Shown: positions 1,181-7,150 of the stretch, in pieces
Layout of the letters: each line of letters opens with the position of its first letter
How positions within the stretch are numbered: the first letter of the stretch is position 1
IMG/VR virus record: IMGVR_UViG_2713896907_000004
Location: 1 to 7,947 of that record
Reading direction: 5' to 3' (one strand)
DNA length: 7,947 nt
Source of the DNA: a virus
Taxonomy: Duplodnaviria > Heunggongvirae > Uroviricota > Caudoviricetes
Position numbers and translations under genes: made by a program
The notes under the pieces: model-generated
The model's input: only the letters and a program-made list of their open reading frames with translations
Database searches by the model: none
Told to the model about the DNA's origin: nothing

Positions 1181-2617
1181 TCAGAATCCTCCTTTCTTCT
1201 TGGACTGCGGTTCCTCGCGTTCACGGCGGCGCATTTCAGCAGACTGTTGGTCTGTGTCATAAATAGCGCCATTTGCCTGTATGCAATACACCGTGCCGGT
1301 ATTGCCATGACGATTGAGGCGAAGGATTAGTTCGGTTTCACCAGGAGGAACGCTGTCATCAAAAGCACCTTCACGATGGATCCCCACCCAATAATCGCAA
1401 TCCTGTTCAATCTGCCCTGTATCTCGTGAGTCACTTGGTAATGGGCGTTTATTGGTTCGGCTTTCCAGTGCGCGGTTAAGCTGTGTCAGAAGCACAACAA
1501 CGCAATCAAGCTCTTTGGCAAGGTTCTTCAGTCCTTTGGTGATCATGCCGTAAGCAAGGTCGTTGCGATCGGCCTTTTCAGCGGTCATTAGTGTCAGGTA
1601 ATCGACCAGAATCATGCCAACACATCCTTTTTCTCGCTTGATTCGACGGCTTTCGCTGACGATTTGAGCCAGAGATAATCCCGGCGTGTCGTCGATGTAA
1701 AGCAGGTCGATTTCACTCAAGCGATTGGCTGTCTCGATCGCCCTGTTGAAGTCACCATCGTAATCACCCTGATAGCCGTCATCAGCGTCATTTGTCGCCG
1801 GAAGGTAAAAAATATTCGGGTTCACACCTGACTTCTGCCCTACCAGTTTTTCCAGTATCTGGTCACCTGGCATTTCAAGGCTGAACATCAGAGCGGGCTT
1901 TTTCTCATGCACTGCGCAGTTGATTGCCATCTGGCTGTATAGCGTCGTTTTCCCCATCTTAGGGCGAGCGCCAATGACAAACAGAGAGCCTTTCACCAGA
2001 CCTTTCGGTGACAGCATCCTGTCCAGCGATGGGATCCCTGTGCTCATTCCTCGTTGTTCGCCTGACGGGTCAAATCGCTTCTCAAGGTCGCTAACCCAGT
2101 CTTCCATGACCTCACCAAATGAGCGAAGGCCGCGACGCGATCCGGTTTTTGCATGGTCTGTCAGTTGCGTGAAAATCGACTGAATAGCTTCGTACTTCTG
2201 CGTTGCAGTCATTCCGTTGCGGGAATAGAGCAATTCCGTCGCTTCAGTCATGCGGTTGATGGCGTAGCGTTCCATTGCGGTTTCGCGAACCTGCATTGCA
2301 TAAGCAACGATGTTTGCTGCGCTTGGCGTGTTCTTTGCGATCTCAGCGATATAAGCAAAACCGCCAACAGACGCCGTTAACGATTTACGCTCCAGTTCAT
2401 CGAAAAGCGTCAGGCCATCTACTGGCTTTTGCTCACGGTGCATTCTGGTTATTTCTTCGAAAATGATTTTGTGTGGCCGGCTGTAAAATGAATCAGGCTT
2501 CAGCATCGCCAGAACCTTCTGGACGCGCTCACTGCTGTCATCATCCAGAAGCAATCCACCAATCACCGCCTGCTCTGCCTCGATGCTATGGGGCGGCGCA
2601 TAAAAATTATCGGTCAT
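1181..2617 (-). CDS. dnaB: DnaB-family replicative DNA helicase (phage-encoded, P22 gene 12-like)
   Basis: Track ORF 1181..2632(-). Start chosen at ATG 2617 ([25 protein letters not shown], preceded by GAGGGTG); the track Met at 2632 is the alternative. Classic DnaB N-terminus and Walker A GARPKMGKTT. Start overlaps the upstream gene's stop (ATGACCGATAA). Confidence 0.9.
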   Translation of the reverse strand: MTDNFYAPPHSIEAEQAVIGGLLLDDDSSERVQKVLAMLKPDSFYSRPHKIIFEEITRMHREQKPVDGLTLFDELERKSLTASVGGFAYIAEIAKNTPSAANIVAYAMQVRETAMERYAINRMTEATELLYSRNGMTATQKYEAIQSIFTQLTDHAKTGSRRGLRSFGEVMEDWVSDLEKRFDPSGEQRGMSTGIPSLDRMLSPKGLVKGSLFVIGARPKMGKTTLYSQMAINCAVHEKKPALMFSLEMPGDQILEKLVGQKSGVNPNIFYLPATNDADDGYQGDYDGDFNRAIETANRLSEIDLLYIDDTPGLSLAQIVSESRRIKREKGCVGMILVDYLTLMTAEKADRNDLAYGMITKGLKNLAKELDCVVVLLTQLNRALESRTNKRPLPSDSRDTGQIEQDCDYWVGIHREGAFDDSVPPGETELILRLNRHGNTGTVYCIQANGAIYDTDQQSAEMRRREREEPQSKKKGGF

Positions 2618-3506
2618 CGTGTTCACCCTCACGAACTTTCAGGTAGGTATTGTCGTTAAGCAGGAAATCAAATCCCTTTTTGTGCCAGACGGTTCCGCGC
2701 TGATGGTTTGGGCGCTCTTCGAACATCCATCGGCAATTTTCGCCTACGTAGCTCAAATAATTTCTCCAGTCCTGCATCGTGAACCCATGCCCGTCAAGCT
2801 GGCGGGTTATCACTCCGGCTTTGCGCCAGAACGTTCGGATCTGGTTTTTACGCTTGTCATTCAGTGCGCGGATTCTTGGCGCTTCAGGAAGGATTTCGTG
2901 GTAAGCATCGACAACATCCTGACAGCTGACGGGAGGTTTTTTCTTGTCAGACTTTTTGTCTGCTGTGGCACTCTCTAATACGTCAGTATTAGAGATAATA
3001 TTATTATATTCTTTATCTGTGGTAATTTGCTGGTAATCTGCTGGTACAGTATTGCTTACAGGCATTGGTATTGCTGGCTTTGAGGTGGTAATTTGCTGGT
3101 AATCTGCTGGTACAAAATTTGACTGATAATCGTCATATTTCTCTACCGAGAAAACTGAGAATTTACCGTGTGAAACCCAGTCAATCATGCCGAGTTTTTT
3201 GAACTTTCTAAGCAGGTACTGAACGCGATCTGGTTTGAGTCCTGTTTCAAACGCCAGAGAGTTTCTACCGCCAAGTAGCTTCCCTCTGCCTACCAGAATT
3301 TCTCCTGCGTCAGTCATTACATACTCAGGCGTATGCTTTGCTTTGAGGATTAAGTGAACCCACAGATGCGCTGCTTCTGCGTCCTTGTAAAACGGCACAT
3401 CCATAATTTTACGGTGCAGCAAGGCATACCCCTTACCGCTGCTTTGATGCGGTTGTTGTAGCCTTCTGGCCTCTCTGGCTTCGGCTAGATTAGATATGTT
3501 ACTCAT
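2607..3506 (-). CDS. Replication initiation protein (lambda O / P22 gp18 analogue)
   Basis: Track ORF 2607..3506(-). AAGGAG 7 nt upstream of the ATG at 3506. N-terminal winged-helix-like region, a central linker carrying the duplicated peptide [10 protein letters not shown], and a C-terminus resembling the conserved phage replication-protein C-terminal domain. Sits immediately upstream of the helicase. Confidence 0.8.
2972..3113. other. Putative origin of replication inside the initiator gene: AT-rich palindrome plus iteron-like direct repeats
   Basis: Two identical 29-bp direct repeats (3019-3047 and 3085-3113, gtggtaatttgctggtaatctgctggtac), each with GCTGGTAAT sub-repeats at about 11-bp spacing. 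Adjacent AT-rich stretch 2972-3016 holds a perfect 10-bp inverted repeat, tctctaatac-gtca-gtattagaga (2972-2995). Layout matches lambda ori inside O. Confidence 0.5.
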
Positions 3507-3645
3507 GACCTTTCTCCTTCTGCATCAGCTTCACTTTTTCCAACTCAGCCCGGAATCGACAAGGCTGCTTGAAGCTGGACAGGAAGCGATCACGTAGTAT
3601 GTGTTTGTGAATTTTGTCCTGGTAAGGACTGAGTTGTTTTGTCAT
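3499..3645 (-). CDS. Small hypothetical protein (48 aa) between cII and the initiator gene
   Basis: Not in the supplied track (too short). Hand translation from ATG 3645: [53 protein letters not shown] 7 nt upstream. Stop overlaps the initiator start (ATGAGTAA). Confidence 0.4.
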
Positions 3646-3654
3646 AATGACTCC

Positions 3655-3731
3655 TGTGGATTGATCCAGTAATTACCTCAGAACTCCATCTGGATTTGTT
3701 CAGAACGCTCGGTTGCCGCCGGGCGTTTTTT
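3655..3731 (+). ncRNA. oop: oop-like antisense RNA candidate (about 77 nt, antisense to the cII 3' end)
   Basis: Plus-strand extended -10 TGtCATAAT at 3640-3648 in the cII/initiator intergenic region, with a strong intrinsic terminator about 77 nt downstream inside the cII 3' end. Geometry as for lambda OOP. Start site is inferred, not observed. Confidence 0.4.
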
Positions 3732-3974
3732 ATTGGTTAGTCCATCAAGCGCATACTTAAAAGCCCTGCTAATCGGACTGATGTCTGATGCCATTCCAAA
3801 AGCACACAGAACCGAAGCAATAAATCTCCAGTCCGTTCTGCTTATCTTCGATTCATGACAGCCAATCATCTTTGCCAGACCGCGCTGGGTAAGCGTTGAC
3901 AGGTTGATAAGTAAATCTGTTTCTGCGCGATCAACGTCGCGCTGTGATAGTTTGCTGTAACTTGTTTGTTCCAT
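3678..3974 (-). CDS. cII: CII transcriptional activator (lambda CII family)
   Basis: Track ORF 3678..3974(-), 98 aa. C-terminal LTNKKRPAATERSEQIQMEF matches the lambda CII C-terminus as recalled. HTH-like ESKISRTDWRF in the middle. Sits between cro and the replication genes. Confidence 0.9.
   Translation of the reverse strand: MEQTSYSKLSQRDVDRAETDLLINLSTLTQRGLAKMIGCHESKISRTDWRFIASVLCAFGMASDISPISRAFKYALDGLTNKKRPAATERSEQIQMEF
3704..3731 (+). terminator. Rho-independent terminator on the strand antisense to cII
   Basis: Stem cgctcgg (3706-3712) / ccgggcg (3719-3725) with one G-U pair, 6-nt loop, extendable by two A-T pairs, followed by TTTTTTATT. Confidence 0.6.
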
Positions 3975-3984
3975 TTCTTACTAT
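3952..3984 (+). promoter_or_regulatory. PRE-like CII-dependent promoter candidate (TTGC-N6-TTGT at the cII start)
   Basis: Plus strand TTGC (3952-3955) - tgtaac - TTGT (3962-3965) overlapping the cII start region, with TACTAT at 3979-3984. Resembles lambda PRE TTGC-N6-TTGC and would point through cro antisense toward cI. Confidence 0.3.
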
Positions 3985-4008
3985 TTCCATAGTTAAATAA
4001 TCACTAAT

Positions 4009-4026
4009 ACTCATCTTTCGATGAGT
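4009..4026 (-). terminator. tR1-position hairpin between nutR and cII
   Basis: Minus-strand RNA ACUCAUC-GAAA-GAUGAGU, a perfect 7-bp stem with GAAA tetraloop, followed by an AU-rich tail AUUAGUGAUUAUUU. Weak intrinsic terminator or processing site. Confidence 0.35.
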
Positions 4027-4038
4027 GCTTAATTAGTT

Positions 4039-4073
4039 ACCGCGTTGTCGGCGGTGCAGATTGATAAAGAGCG
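4039..4073 (-). promoter_or_regulatory. nutR: boxA plus P22-type boxB
   Basis: Minus strand just downstream of the cro stop: boxA-like CGCTCTTTA (plus 4065-4073), then boxB hairpin ACCGCCGACAACGCGGU (plus 4039-4055). Matches the P22 nutR boxB as recalled. Confidence 0.6.
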
Positions 4074-4080
4074 ATGTTAC

Positions 4081-4308
4081 TTATGCAGCCAGAAGGTTCT
4101 TTTTGCTTATTTCAAGCATTTCGCTTGCTTGATATTTGCCACCAGAAATCTCTTCGATTTTTGATGCATATTTCGTTTTCCCAAAAAACTCAGTCTTAGG
4201 GAGGAAGCCGTTTTTAAGCCACTTATAGACAGCCCTTTCGCTAACTCCACAAGCCTTCGCAACTTCAGGGATGCCGACACCTTTAATCGGCTCATCAAGA
4301 TTTTGCAT
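4081..4308 (-). CDS. cro: Cro-like HTH regulator (first gene of the PR operon)
   Basis: Track ORF 4081..4341(-). Start chosen at internal ATG 4308 (MQNLDEPIKGVGIPEVAKACGVSERAVYKWLKNGFLP...), which has AAAAAGGG 8 nt upstream. The track ATG at 4341 falls inside the predicted PR -10. HTH motif present; divergent from cI. Confidence 0.7.
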   Translation of the reverse strand: MQNLDEPIKGVGIPEVAKACGVSERAVYKWLKNGFLPKTEFFGKTKYASKIEEISGGKYQASEMLEISKKNLLAA

Positions 4309-4320
4309 AGGAATACCCTT

Positions 4321-4393
4321 TTTCGTACTTTCAGTACGCATTATGATTGAACTGAAAGTTTTTGCAAGTGCTTTAGTATCGTACTCATGGTTC
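4321..4393. promoter_or_regulatory. OR-like operator/promoter region (PR leftward, PRM rightward)
   Basis: Minus-strand PR: -35 TTGCAA (plus 4362-4367), 16-bp spacer, -10 CATAAT (plus 4340-4345). Operator-like sites: cgtACTttcAGTacg palindrome (4324-4338), gaACTgaaAGTt (4349-4360), weaker taTCGTACtc (4377-4386). Possible PRM -10 TAGTAT (4374-4379) ends 7 nt before the cI ATG, which lacks a Shine-Dalgarno. Confidence 0.5.
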
Positions 4394-5094
4394 AGAATGA
4401 AAAAGTGCGCAAAGAATTCGCCCAGCGGCTAGCGCAAGCCTGTAAAGAAGCTGGTCTTGATGAACATGGTAGGGGGATGGCCATAGCCCGTGCCCTTTCT
4501 CTTTCGTCCAAAGGCGTTAGCAAATGGTTTAATGCTGAGTCTTTACCGCGTCAGGAAAAAATGAATGCGCTTGCGAAATTTCTAAACGTTGATGTTGTTT
4601 GGCTTCAGCACGGCACTTCGTTAAATGGAGCGAATGATGAAGATACTCTTTCATTTGTTGGCAAATTAAAAAAAGGGTTAGTGCGCGTGGTTGGTGAGGC
4701 AATTCTTGGTGTTGATGGTGCCATCGAGATGACCGAAGAGCGCGATGGGTGGCTCAAGATTTATAGCGATGATCCAGATGCCTTTGGTCTTCGTGTGAAA
4801 GGAGACAGCATGTGGCCCAGAATAAAATCAGGAGAATATGTACTCATTGAGCCTAACACCAAAGTATTCCCGGGTGATGAGGTGTTTGTCAGAACCGTTG
4901 AAGGACACAACATGATTAAGGTTCTTGGCTATGACAGAGATGGAGAATACCAATTTACAAGCATTAACCAGGACCACAGGCCTATAACGTTGCCTTATCA
5001 TCAAGTAGCAAAGGTGGAGTATGTGGCTGGTATTCTGAAGCAATCTCGTCATCTGGATGACATCGAGGCAAGGGAGTGGCTGAAAAATTCGTGA
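4387..5094 (+). CDS. cI: CI-like prophage repressor (N-terminal HTH, C-terminal S24 LexA-like peptidase)
   Basis: Track ORF 4387..5094(+), 235 aa. HTH near the N-terminus (GMAIARALSLSSKGVSKWFN). C-terminal GDSMWP serine motif and downstream Lys (NMIKVLG) typical of the S24 autocleavage domain. Divergent from cro with the operator region between. Confidence 0.9.
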   Translation: MVQNEKVRKEFAQRLAQACKEAGLDEHGRGMAIARALSLSSKGVSKWFNAESLPRQEKMNALAKFLNVDVVWLQHGTSLNGANDEDTLSFVGKLKKGLVRVVGEAILGVDGAIEMTEERDGWLKIYSDDPDAFGLRVKGDSMWPRIKSGEYVLIEPNTKVFPGDEVFVRTVEGHNMIKVLGYDRDGEYQFTSINQDHRPITLPYHQVAKVEYVAGILKQSRHLDDIEAREWLKNS

Positions 5095-5170
5095 CTTCAT
5101 CGTCACATAGCTGGTAACCAGTGGCCTGAAGAGACGTTTGGGTGATAGGAATGGATGTTAAGGATTAAGA

Positions 5171-6217
5171 ATGTCAGCGATTGATCAACCTGCGCAATAT
5201 GTTATCAAGTCAGAAGACGACTTTGTATCTTTTGTAACAGAAATGCTCGGAAGGAAGGATATCGACTCAAGCGACTTCACATTCCCTAGCGTAGTTTTCA
5301 GTGGATGGCCAAAGATCAATATTAATGTAAAAGGCGATCCAAATAGATATAATTCTTCATTGACTGCGTCAATGCTTTTTGGTATGGCAGAGCTTACGCA
5401 TGAAATACAAAAAGCATTTACGGTAGTCAGTCACAGCACTCATAATCGGCAGAAGCTAAAAGATGCAGAGAAAGGTTTGCTGGATATTGTCTACCGAATA
5501 AGCGAAGGCTCAAGCCAAGCGGATGGTGACTCAGATCCGATTGTAAACGGAGTGGTGACAGTGTTAACTCAAGCGATAGGCAAAATGACAGGAAGGCAAG
5601 CACTATGCGCCGTCGCCGCTATCGTCTTAGCTGCCAGCACGGTAGGCTATAAGTGGATCAATGAGTACTACGAAACACAGCGACATGACCAAGATTCTCA
5701 GGTGCAATTGGTGGAAAAAAGCACCAAAGCGGTAAACGAAGCACAAGACAATGTGCTCAAGTTGTTGATTAGCGGTCAAACAAACATTAGCAGAGAGGTT
5801 CTGGCTCACGGCGAGGATGGTAAAAGCAAGTTGCTTAAAAAGCTTGCTCAAGACTCGTCAGTTGAGAAGGTAACAATTGGTCAGAGAGTGGTAAATAGAG
5901 AACAGTTGAATACCTTAAACCAAAGGCAATCAATTGATCGAAAAAAGGAAACCAGAAGAGATAACTTTTATGTCACGGGCGTTCGTCGCTCGGGAGAAAC
6001 AAATCAGGACATAAATATTGACGTCACAAGGGTTTCAAATGGTGAATCTTTCACCATAAAAACCTCAGCCGACATAACATCTACTGATGAGCTTCTTGAG
6101 TTTTTGAATGCTGTAGCCAAAGAATCAACTGTTGAAATTTCATACCTAGAGGTTGTAGAAAATGGACACATTTCAACAGGACAATTGATAAATATATTCC
6201 CCAGCGAACCAGAGTGA
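5171..6217 (+). CDS. Hypothetical membrane protein (348 aa) in the rexAB-equivalent slot; candidate exclusion/defence moron
   Basis: Track ORF 5171..6217(+). AAGGA 6 nt upstream of the ATG. Same strand as cI, 76 bp downstream, with no terminator between. Visibly AT-richer than neighbours. One central hydrophobic segment (ALCAVAAIVLAASTVGY) and a charged Q/K/E-rich C-terminal half. No family recognised. Terminator follows. Confidence 0.8.
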   Translation: MSAIDQPAQYVIKSEDDFVSFVTEMLGRKDIDSSDFTFPSVVFSGWPKININVKGDPNRYNSSLTASMLFGMAELTHEIQKAFTVVSHSTHNRQKLKDAEKGLLDIVYRISEGSSQADGDSDPIVNGVVTVLTQAIGKMTGRQALCAVAAIVLAASTVGYKWINEYYETQRHDQDSQVQLVEKSTKAVNEAQDNVLKLLISGQTNISREVLAHGEDGKSKLLKKLAQDSSVEKVTIGQRVVNREQLNTLNQRQSIDRKKETRRDNFYVTGVRRSGETNQDINIDVTRVSNGESFTIKTSADITSTDELLEFLNAVAKESTVEISYLEVVENGHISTGQLINIFPSEPE

Positions 6218-6254: not shown

Positions 6255-6354
6255 GCCTCACGTTCGCCCTCCCATATTTAATAGCCGCAAATGTGGTAAA
6301 CCGCGAACCAACTCACCAGCAATACCCCCTCCAACTACAGACCAATCTGCAGCA

Positions 6355-6681: not shown

Positions 6682-6801
6682 ATGCTGGAAATTATCACCA
6701 ACCCAATTCTCGGTGGGGCAATCATCACTTTCGCAATCGGCATCGGATTCACTATCTGGTCTGAAGTAGATGACTGGATGTGGGAGCGCAAAAACAAATA
6801 A
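6682..6801 (+). CDS. Small hydrophobic peptide (39 aa, single predicted TM helix) in the N leader
   Basis: ATG at 6682 with GGAG 8 nt upstream. Product MLEIITNPILGGAIITFAIGIGFTIWSEVDDWMWERKNK: hydrophobic core then a charged Trp-rich tail. Inside the longer track ORF 6616..6801. Lies between nutL and N. Confidence 0.4.
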   Translation: MLEIITNPILGGAIITFAIGIGFTIWSEVDDWMWERKNK

Positions 6802-6841
6802 TAATCGACACACATTCATGTGTGTCTTCACGGAGGTCATC

Positions 6842-7150
6842 ATGACGGTTATCGTATACGGAAAATCAACATTTGCAGGAAATGCCAAAACTCGCCGTCA
6901 TGAGCGGCGCAGAAAGCTGGCTATCGAGCGTGATTCCATCTGCAACATCATCGATTCGATCTTCGGCACAGACAGTGAGGAAGCTGTTCAGGAAGAACCG
7001 AGAAAGCGTTTAAGCCTTTCTGAAAAAGCAATATCACTCGGCATCATTAGTAAATCAAATACAGATGCGAATGGCGGAAGCGTTTGCCTGCCCGAAGTTG
7101 CACTGTATGCTGCTGGTTACAGGTCAATGAAATCAATTACGGCGAGATAG
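6842..7150 (+). CDS. N: N-like transcription antiterminator (P22 gene 24 type, arginine-rich motif)
   Basis: Internal start of track ORF 6770..7150 at Met 25 (ATG 6842), with GGAGG 5 nt upstream. N-terminus MTVIVYGKSTFAGNAKTRRHERRRKLAIERD carries the arginine-rich boxB-binding motif of P22 N as recalled. Cognate boxB present in both nutL and nutR. Confidence 0.85.
   Translation: MTVIVYGKSTFAGNAKTRRHERRRKLAIERDSICNIIDSIFGTDSEEAVQEEPRKRLSLSEKAISLGIISKSNTDANGGSVCLPEVALYAAGYRSMKSITAR

Follow-up and report, generated by a model that had tools for sequence, protein, structure and literature searches.

A predicted replication origin of HK022 type, with phased 11-bp iterons and a covarying palindrome, inside the initiator gene of a lambdoid prophage

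Within the gene of an O-like replication initiator of a lambdoid prophage, two exact direct repeats stand beside an AT-rich tract and a small palindrome, which raises the question of whether this DNA is an origin of replication embedded in a coding sequence, or whether its repetitions were shaped by the encoded protein or by other regulatory functions. We addressed this question on the window (i.e. the whole 7947-bp stretch of DNA that was analysed) and on relatives gathered from phage records, IMG/VR and a set of one genome per species. Positions 2972-3114 very probably represent the origin from which a lambdoid prophage of HK022 type starts theta replication, and they fall in the linker-coding part of the initiator gene of that prophage (Table 1). 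The first-pass annotation had already read the iterons, AT tract and palindrome as an origin, an interpretation supported by the comparative evidence and by the annotations of VT2-Sakai and HK620.

The window corresponds to a standard lambdoid immunity-replication region, with a pR operon composed of cro, cII, orf48, the O-like gene and the helicase gene, the last of which overlaps the 3' end of the initiator gene. The initiator is 99% identical to that of HK022, HK620, VT2-Sakai, a Stx1-converting phage, Stx2 phage 86 and many prophages, and the repeats, AT tract and palindrome all fall inside its interdomain linker. In the surroundings, a conserved 33-bp oop promoter/5'-end motif has an exact match at 3638-3670 (minus strand) and a strong terminator-like hairpin lies at 3702-3729 (plus strand), within the 3' end of cII; taken together, they suggest a putative OOP-like antisense RNA of ~75-80 nt on the plus strand. 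Rfam returned no RNA family in the whole window, OOP-like site included. Between cI and the N-like gene, at the position of lambda rexAB, a 348-aa ORF (5171-6217, plus strand) has no Pfam or PADLOC match, its sole match being PHROG 6191, a family without assigned function; this ORF is a candidate for a moron or exclusion gene expressed from the prophage. A promoter scan of 2600-4400 detected nothing in or near the origin, the sole promoter-like site being at 4340-4367 on the minus strand.

Table 1. Features of the predicted origin and of its gene neighbourhood (positions in the window)
Feature	Position	Strand	Basis and remarks
Palindrome TCTCTAATAC-TGAC-GTATTAGAGA (coding strand), 10-bp arms, 4-nt apex	2972-2995	.	
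AT-rich tract, 23 bp, presumed DNA-unwinding element	2996-3018	.	GC down to 0.33; AT tract at the same place in all relatives
Iteron cluster 2 (adjoins AT tract)	3019-3048	-	Second copy of the 10-aa peptide; 'ori iteron 2' in AP000422
Cluster 2 subrepeats	3037-3047, 3026-3036, 3015-3025	-	
Spacer between clusters	3049-3084	-	Sequence free; length keeps the 66-bp start-to-start spacing (6 x 11)
Iteron cluster 1 (distal to AT tract)	3085-3114	-	Exact 30-mer copy; encodes the 10-aa peptide; 'ori iteron 1' in AP000422
Cluster 1 subrepeats, 11-bp direct	3103-3113, 3092-3102, 3081-3091	-	
O-like replication initiator gene, 299 aa	2607-3506	-	ORF, translation, megablast/tblastn; PHROG 345 'replication initiation O-like', E 2.7e-87
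Initiator N-terminal domain, aa 1-128, predicted winged-helix DNA-binding	3123-3506	-	AlphaFold model; co-varies with repeat type
Initiator C-terminal domain, presumed helicase contact	2607-2930	-	Assorts independently of repeat type
DnaB-like replicative helicase gene, P22 gp12/HK022 P type	1181-2632	-	Pfam DnaB 6e-32, DnaB_C 3e-60; relatives' annotations
orf48/DUF2740 gene	3499-3645	-	
cII	3678-3974	-	
cro	4081-4341	-	
cI	4387-5094	+	
N-like gene	6770-7150	+	

The two direct repeats are identical over 30 nt and start 66 bp apart. When the window was dinucleotide-shuffled 100 times, direct repeats lying within 200 bp of each other had a longest length of 10.3 nt on average and of 13 nt at most. 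On the coding strand each 30-mer is made of three 11-bp units (GTACCAGCAGA / TTACCAGCAAA / TTACCAC..), giving six direct subrepeats with the core TACCA[G/C]C, devoid of dyad symmetry and arranged as two trios six 11-bp periods apart. A repeat search over the 7947 bp found no other array of this iteron kind elsewhere in the window. The AT-rich side of the element includes the least stable 25-bp segment of all 7947 bp (2987-3012; dG -23.0, 3.8 sd under the window mean of -34.4, sd 3.0), and the palindrome has perfect 10-bp arms (2972-2981 and 2986-2995) around a 4-nt loop, so that the order in the direction of pR transcription is iterons, AT-rich tract, then 24-bp palindrome. The first-pass annotation had reported, in the middle of the O-like gene, two 29-bp direct repeats 66 bp apart, built from subrepeats at near-helical spacing and adjoining an AT-rich stretch with a perfect 10-bp inverted repeat. 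Location (3019-3048 and 3085-3114 within ORF 2607-3506), spacing, exactness and subrepeats are borne out, the repeat length being corrected to 30 nt with three 11-bp units each; AT-rich stretch and inverted repeat are both present, the palindrome being however a conserved element distinct from the AT-rich tract rather than part of it.

This architecture is shared by ~60 distinct relatives, in which three 11-bp repeats, the 66-bp spacing, three further 11-bp repeats, an AT tract of 13-23 bp and a palindrome of 9-11 bp follow one another. Their hosts include E. coli, Salmonella, Enterobacter, Klebsiella, Yersinia, Pantoea, Erwinia, Xenorhabdus and Morganella, and the layout is still present in a Glaciecola MAG at 25% protein identity. 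The trios sit in the linker after a KYDD(Y/F)Q motif, and at least eight different repeat cores, unrelated in sequence and in encoded peptide, occur among the relatives: TACCAGCA in the window, TGTCCAACG in L and HK75, TGTCCAGCC in CobraSix, TGCCAACA in Klebsiella and Erwinia phages, and ATCCAAAG, TCCGGA, TTCCCAGAAGA and CCGACACCCTA in others. The distance between cluster starts remains fixed at 66 bp while the spacer sequence drifts, apart from a few degenerate arrays in which the script settled on a different offset close by or on a different multiple of 11. The window has the features of the HK022/VT2-Sakai/phage L type, namely an initiator of the HK022 O family, two 11-bp trios at 66 bp and an AT tract followed by a 9-11-bp palindrome. 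Of 5426 complete E. coli genomes, 229 cover at least 80% of the length of a 211-bp query (2940-3150).

Taken alone, the palindrome is marginally beyond chance (shuffles give a mean of 7.8 and a maximum of 9), and its reality is shown by comparison with relatives, not by the window alone. Across 33 distinct relatives, 97.3% of cells remained paired, whereas shuffling gave 62% and sliding the partner columns 29-48%, and as high a pairing was reached in 0 of 500 shuffles; each palindrome had been centred on the strongest inverted repeat within 200 nt, a procedure that favours pairing. All ten pairs show changes on both sides, and Watson-Crick pairing holds in 297 of 297 cells of the nine inner pairs, without a single G-T, across at least 12 arm sequences that include TCTCTAATAC, TCTCTTCTAC, CTCTCTTAC, ACTTACTACC, CAATACTATC, ACTCAATATCT and CTCATTAGGT. 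Every relative has perfect arms of 9-11 bp at the same position after the AT tract, with an apex of TRAC or AA and a nearly invariant closing C-G; as single-stranded DNA, the palindrome of the window folds into a hairpin of -7.5 kcal/mol (z -6.4). The absence of G-T pairs argues for a putative DNA-level element, acting on both strands, as a cruciform or as a symmetric site, over an RNA-only hairpin.

A second inverted repeat, CTGACGGGAGGTTTTTTCTTGTCAG, was observed at 2926-2950, within the lysine-rich (DKKKPPVS) part of the linker; it is terminator-like on the antisense strand, and the phage L record carries a terminator at the homologous place. Both inverted repeats could accordingly be regarded as intrinsic terminators of antisense (plus-strand) transcription, with the T-rich run downstream serving as U-tract instead of unwinding element: both score terminator-like on the plus strand, 2972-2995 weakly, and terminators are recorded at homologous places in phage L. 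However, the stem of the palindrome is AT-rich with three G-C pairs, the T-run has interruptions, the scan of 2600-4400 predicts no leftward promoter, the G-T pairs that an RNA hairpin would tolerate are missing from the nine inner pairs in all 33 sequences, and lambda has a palindrome at the same place, all of which make the terminator explanation improbable.

Template-switch correction is known for short quasi-palindromes, and such a process could have perfected the arms, which are perfect in nearly all lineages, without any selection. We consider this very unlikely in view of the fixed position after the AT tract, of the apex (TRAC/AA) and closing C-G conserved across several genera, and of the presence of the same element in origins whose iterons are of lambda type, such as those of a Mannheimia phage, HK97 and P22. 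The C-TAAC-G apex is common to the HK022 family, HK97, P22 and the Mannheimia phage, of which the iteron and N-domain types are unrelated. In Mannheimia phage 1152AP2 (L232:1027-1046) and in the HK97 and P22 set (L230, L229), a C-TAAC-G or CT-AA-AG palindrome was observed downstream of the AT tract, reading GAATTTAC-TAAC-GTAAATTC in the Mannheimia phage. These lambda-type cases form a small hand-picked set and are anecdotal rather than a statistical test; a scan of viral contigs with lambda O for palindrome covariation in lambda-type origins gave near-identical copies only.

A broader reading, which we hold with somewhat less than even confidence, is that the palindrome may be a structure-selected functional part of lambdoid origins generally, and that this initiator family may build its complex on monomer-sized, phased 11-bp sites. 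In lambdoid origins the palindrome could then form a hairpin or cruciform on unwound DNA, positioning helicase loading or priming, or limiting melting; the 11-bp spacing would correspond to monomer-sized sites phased along the helix, in a geometry unlike that of the dimer-on-dyad lambda O-some.

The iteron 9-mer TTACCAGCA, with at most one mismatch, has nine matches outside the origin (183-191, 358-366, 1139-1147, 3617-3625, 4955-4963, 5109-5117, 6313-6321, 6683-6691 and 7111-7119) against 1.66 expected for the whole window, the copy at 1139-1147, just beyond the helicase gene, being exact; oligonucleotide bias alone may account for this excess. Plasmid iterons serve both origin firing and its control. 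Along with the over-representation of TTACCAGCA matches outside the cluster region, this could favour repeats that are initiator sites for autoregulation, copy control or handcuffing, the true origin lying elsewhere. Against such a role as the sole function, the repeats are always found beside the least stable AT tract and the palindrome, in the order of ori-lambda, no second array of such repeats exists in the window, and genetic work (as cited in PMC8022706) puts the L origin inside its replication module. An origin located elsewhere is thus highly improbable, and the predicted origin at 2972-3114 is retained.

The iterons themselves bear several marks of selection on DNA. Among 11 relatives with the same core and diverged proteins, nucleotide identity to the window reaches 99% in cluster 2 and 93% in cluster 1, against 82% in the DNA coding for the N-domain and 68% in the spacer, and the excess over flanking coding DNA includes third codon positions. 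The units of a trio fall in reading frames 0, 2 and 1; since 11 is not a multiple of 3 and the units are read in three frames, the periodicity does not come from protein-level selection, and for the same reason the 10-aa peptide, encoded twice (aa 132-141 and aa 154-163 of the 299-aa ORF), has no internal repeat. Furthermore, the nearest N-domain neighbour has the same repeat core in 78 of 79 cases, against 44 of 79 for the nearest C-domain neighbour. The window and HK75, for instance, have 100% identical C-domains, 50% identical N-domains (gapped identities) and different repeat cores, and the comparison with L059 gives the reverse of this case of identical C-domain, diverged N-domain and different cores. 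This coupling of repeat type and N-domain is what one expects when a DNA-binding domain and the sites that it recognises move together between phages.

Together, the 11-bp period, the identity excess, the fixed spacing and the N-domain coupling show, by comparison of sequences, that it is the iteron DNA rather than the peptide that is under selection. The unit that evolves, and hence the binding unit, is probably the 11-bp subrepeat (3+3) and not the 29/30-bp block. A constraint at both DNA and protein level, as first proposed, is therefore upheld for the DNA (11-bp period and cluster identity), and the duplicated 10-aa peptide is a passenger of the DNA repeat, not a co-selected motif. A mere protein-level duplication of the linker peptide by slippage or unequal crossing-over, without DNA function, would suit a 66-bp unit that is in frame, gives the 10-aa peptide twice and varies from one to three copies in nature (L050, L048), but is hardly credible given a period read in three frames, clusters more conserved than flanking coding DNA and spacer down to third codon positions, and a two-trio layout that recurs with at least eight unrelated cores and peptides.

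Variants of the element were also observed. Two IMG/VR contigs differ in cluster number, one having three iteron clusters and an initiator longer by 22 aa (L048:1201-2163) and the other a single cluster and an initiator shorter by 22 aa (L050:1201-2031), both in frame; these 66-bp copy-number variants presumably arose from unequal recombination between the direct repeats, and they may mean either that an origin can do without exactly two clusters or that the prophages concerned are defective. In 145 complete E. coli genomes only 2940-3016 is matched (query positions 1-77), the homology ending at the edge of cluster 2. Since homology stops there, the N-domain and the iterons form one exchange module and the AT tract, palindrome and C-domain another; the palindrome type assorts independently of the repeat type and goes with the C-domain side. 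Erwinia phage 59 (L010) and five other relatives (L132-L135, L139) combine the same N-domain family and 3+3 repeats (of GTGCCAACAGA type) with a lambda-like C-domain, and in Erwinia phage 59 a P-type loader follows the initiator in place of the helicase and the AT tract is 13 bp long, which shows domain shuffling between initiator classes. In a distant N-domain relative from Prevotella sp. oral taxon 376 (L142), a codon-compatible 12-bp tandem, ACAAATGAGCAA, in at least six copies occupies the equivalent linker position, replacing the 11-bp trios.

The element is already known at annotation level. In VT2-Sakai (AP000422), the iterons, AT tract and palindrome are base-for-base identical to those of the window, and the record carries misc_binding features that coincide exactly with 3085-3114 ('ori iteron 1') and 3019-3048 ('ori iteron 2'); the same two stretches are joined as rep_origin in HK620 (NC_002730), and the phage L record has a 'putative origin of replication' at the homologous place. 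The HK022, HK620, VT2-Sakai and Stx1-phage origins are the same element as in the window, from which they differ by a single spacer substitution and by a few changes beyond the palindrome on its downstream side. The GenBank annotations describe two 30-bp iterons and not six 11-mers, and the AT tract and the palindrome are unmentioned. These public annotations (VT2-Sakai, HK620 and phage L) are themselves predictions, and a search of the accessible literature on the HK022, HK620, VT2-Sakai and phage L origins found predictions, but neither a replication assay nor a footprint nor a mapped origin. Salmonella phage L and ST64T-like phages have an initiator of the same family (66% identity) and six 11-bp repeats, TGTCCAACGGA, in gene 18, which the phage L paper describes as imprecise and regards as the likely origin (PMC8022706). 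Phage L shares with the window the 3+3 layout, the 66-bp spacing, the AT tract and the palindrome arms TCTCTAATAC, but differs in its core (TGTCCAACG against TACCAGCA here) and N-domain (~52% identity), the C-domain being 95% identical.

The likeness to ori-lambda lies in an origin in the middle of the initiator gene and in the succession, in the pR direction, of iterons, AT-rich DNA and a palindrome with a 4-nt loop. Lambda has four iterons inside gene O and, at the equivalent place, a palindrome with 12-bp arms and a 4-nt loop, and its iterons likewise add extra residues to the protein (this analysis and PMC7466680). By contrast, the lambda iterons are 18-19-bp inverted repeats 20-24 bp apart, whereas those of the window are 11-bp direct repeats; the AT tract measures 23 bp in the window against ~40 bp in lambda, and the partner of the initiator is a DnaB-like helicase here and P in lambda. 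All lambda-type relatives have dyad iterons. The element order of the ori-lambda family is thus found in the window, and since three defining features of the family (dyad iterons, a Phage_rep_O N-domain and a P-type loader) are not, the origin of the window would work like ori-lambda without being a member of its family. P22 gene 18 and HK97 O share with the window a DnaB-like helicase partner, a distantly homologous C-domain and an AT tract followed by a small palindrome (CCCCC-TAAC-GGGGG in HK97, CCCCCT-AA-AGGGGG in P22), but their N-domains are of lambda O type (43% identity to lambda O) and their iterons are ~20-bp dyads 20-24 bp apart.

The lambda ori layout proposed by the first-pass annotation consequently holds for the order of the elements and not for family membership, which the 11-bp direct repeats, the unrelated N-domain and the helicase partner contradict. 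Similarly, its O-like initiator is right in position and role, the N-domain being outside the lambda O/P22 gp18 family; and, of the origins it named for comparison, lambda matches in order whereas P22 gene 18 is the wrong comparator, the right ones being HK022, HK620, VT2-Sakai and phage L. Iteron plasmids offer another parallel, with direct repeats bound by a winged-helix Rep beside an AT-rich tract; plasmid iterons are 17-22 bp long and lie about two helical turns apart. In SPP1, oriL lies within the initiator gene 38. The product of this gene, G38P, binds oriL (PMC5615212).

The initiator itself was compared with known families. The AlphaFold model of the N-domain (pLDDT 82, confident from residue 35) has the helix and strand order typical of a winged helix, and since its fold matches are to generic winged-helix regulators (wHTH regulators alone, weak, E >= 1e-3), the domain has no specific family assignment; no relative of the initiator with a solved structure was found by sequence. 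The N-domain matches PHROG 'DnaD-like helicase loader' families with E of 1e-18 to 1e-20; against Pfam PF09681 Phage_rep_org_N (SPP1 G38P type) it scores below the cut-off and without significance (E 0.17). Searches of Pfam and NCBIfam gave no match of the N-domain to Phage_rep_O (PF04492) or TIGR01610, for which lambda O scores 5.7e-36 and 5.4e-39, respectively. An hhalign probability of 97.5% for homology to lambda O was rejected as an artefact of Erwinia phage 59, with its lambda-like C-domain, the probability falling to 0.2% without it. With the Erwinia sequence left out, profile comparison likewise detected no similarity of the C-domain to lambda O; the C-domain has a distant similarity to its counterparts in P22 gp18 and in the Mannheimia phage O protein, and both of these proteins pair with DnaB-like helicases.

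In the mechanism that we propose for this origin, the N-domains would bind the six 11-mers as an array, forming a nucleoprotein complex like the lambda O-some, and the 11-bp and 66-bp spacings would hold the sites on roughly one face of the helix. It is the covariation alone that points to the N-domain as the iteron-binding part, since no homology could be detected between it and lambda O, the protein with proven iteron binding. The array would bend or wrap the DNA, distorting and melting the adjacent AT tract, and the C-domain would deliver the phage's own DnaB-like helicase directly, without a lambda-P-type loader; these binding, melting and delivery steps are modelled on what is known of ori-lambda and iteron plasmids. 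The palindrome would be a structural element of the origin, for example a hairpin or a cruciform formed once the DNA is unwound, or else a signal for a boundary or for loading. Transcription from pR assists origin firing in lambda, and pR transcription through the initiator gene may assist here. The duplicated peptide would be a by-product of DNA repeats read through a tolerant linker.

Because the element was already annotated, little is new here as a discovery, and the family-wide rules (a unit of 11 bp, a spacing fixed at 66 bp and a palindrome that covaries) are modest refinements. This type of origin is nevertheless common, and is present in the Stx-converting phage VT2-Sakai, a Stx1 phage and Stx2 phage 86. 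Biochemical studies of origins in Stx phages deal with the O proteins of 933W and P27, which are of lambda type (PMC7466680), and work on Stx phage replication is limited to the lambda-type O/P modules of these two phages, so that a defined, testable HK022-type origin would aid studies of toxin-phage induction. In addition, the 11-mer arrays, with their pairs of N-domain and repeat specificities, would supply natural orthogonal initiator/origin pairs.
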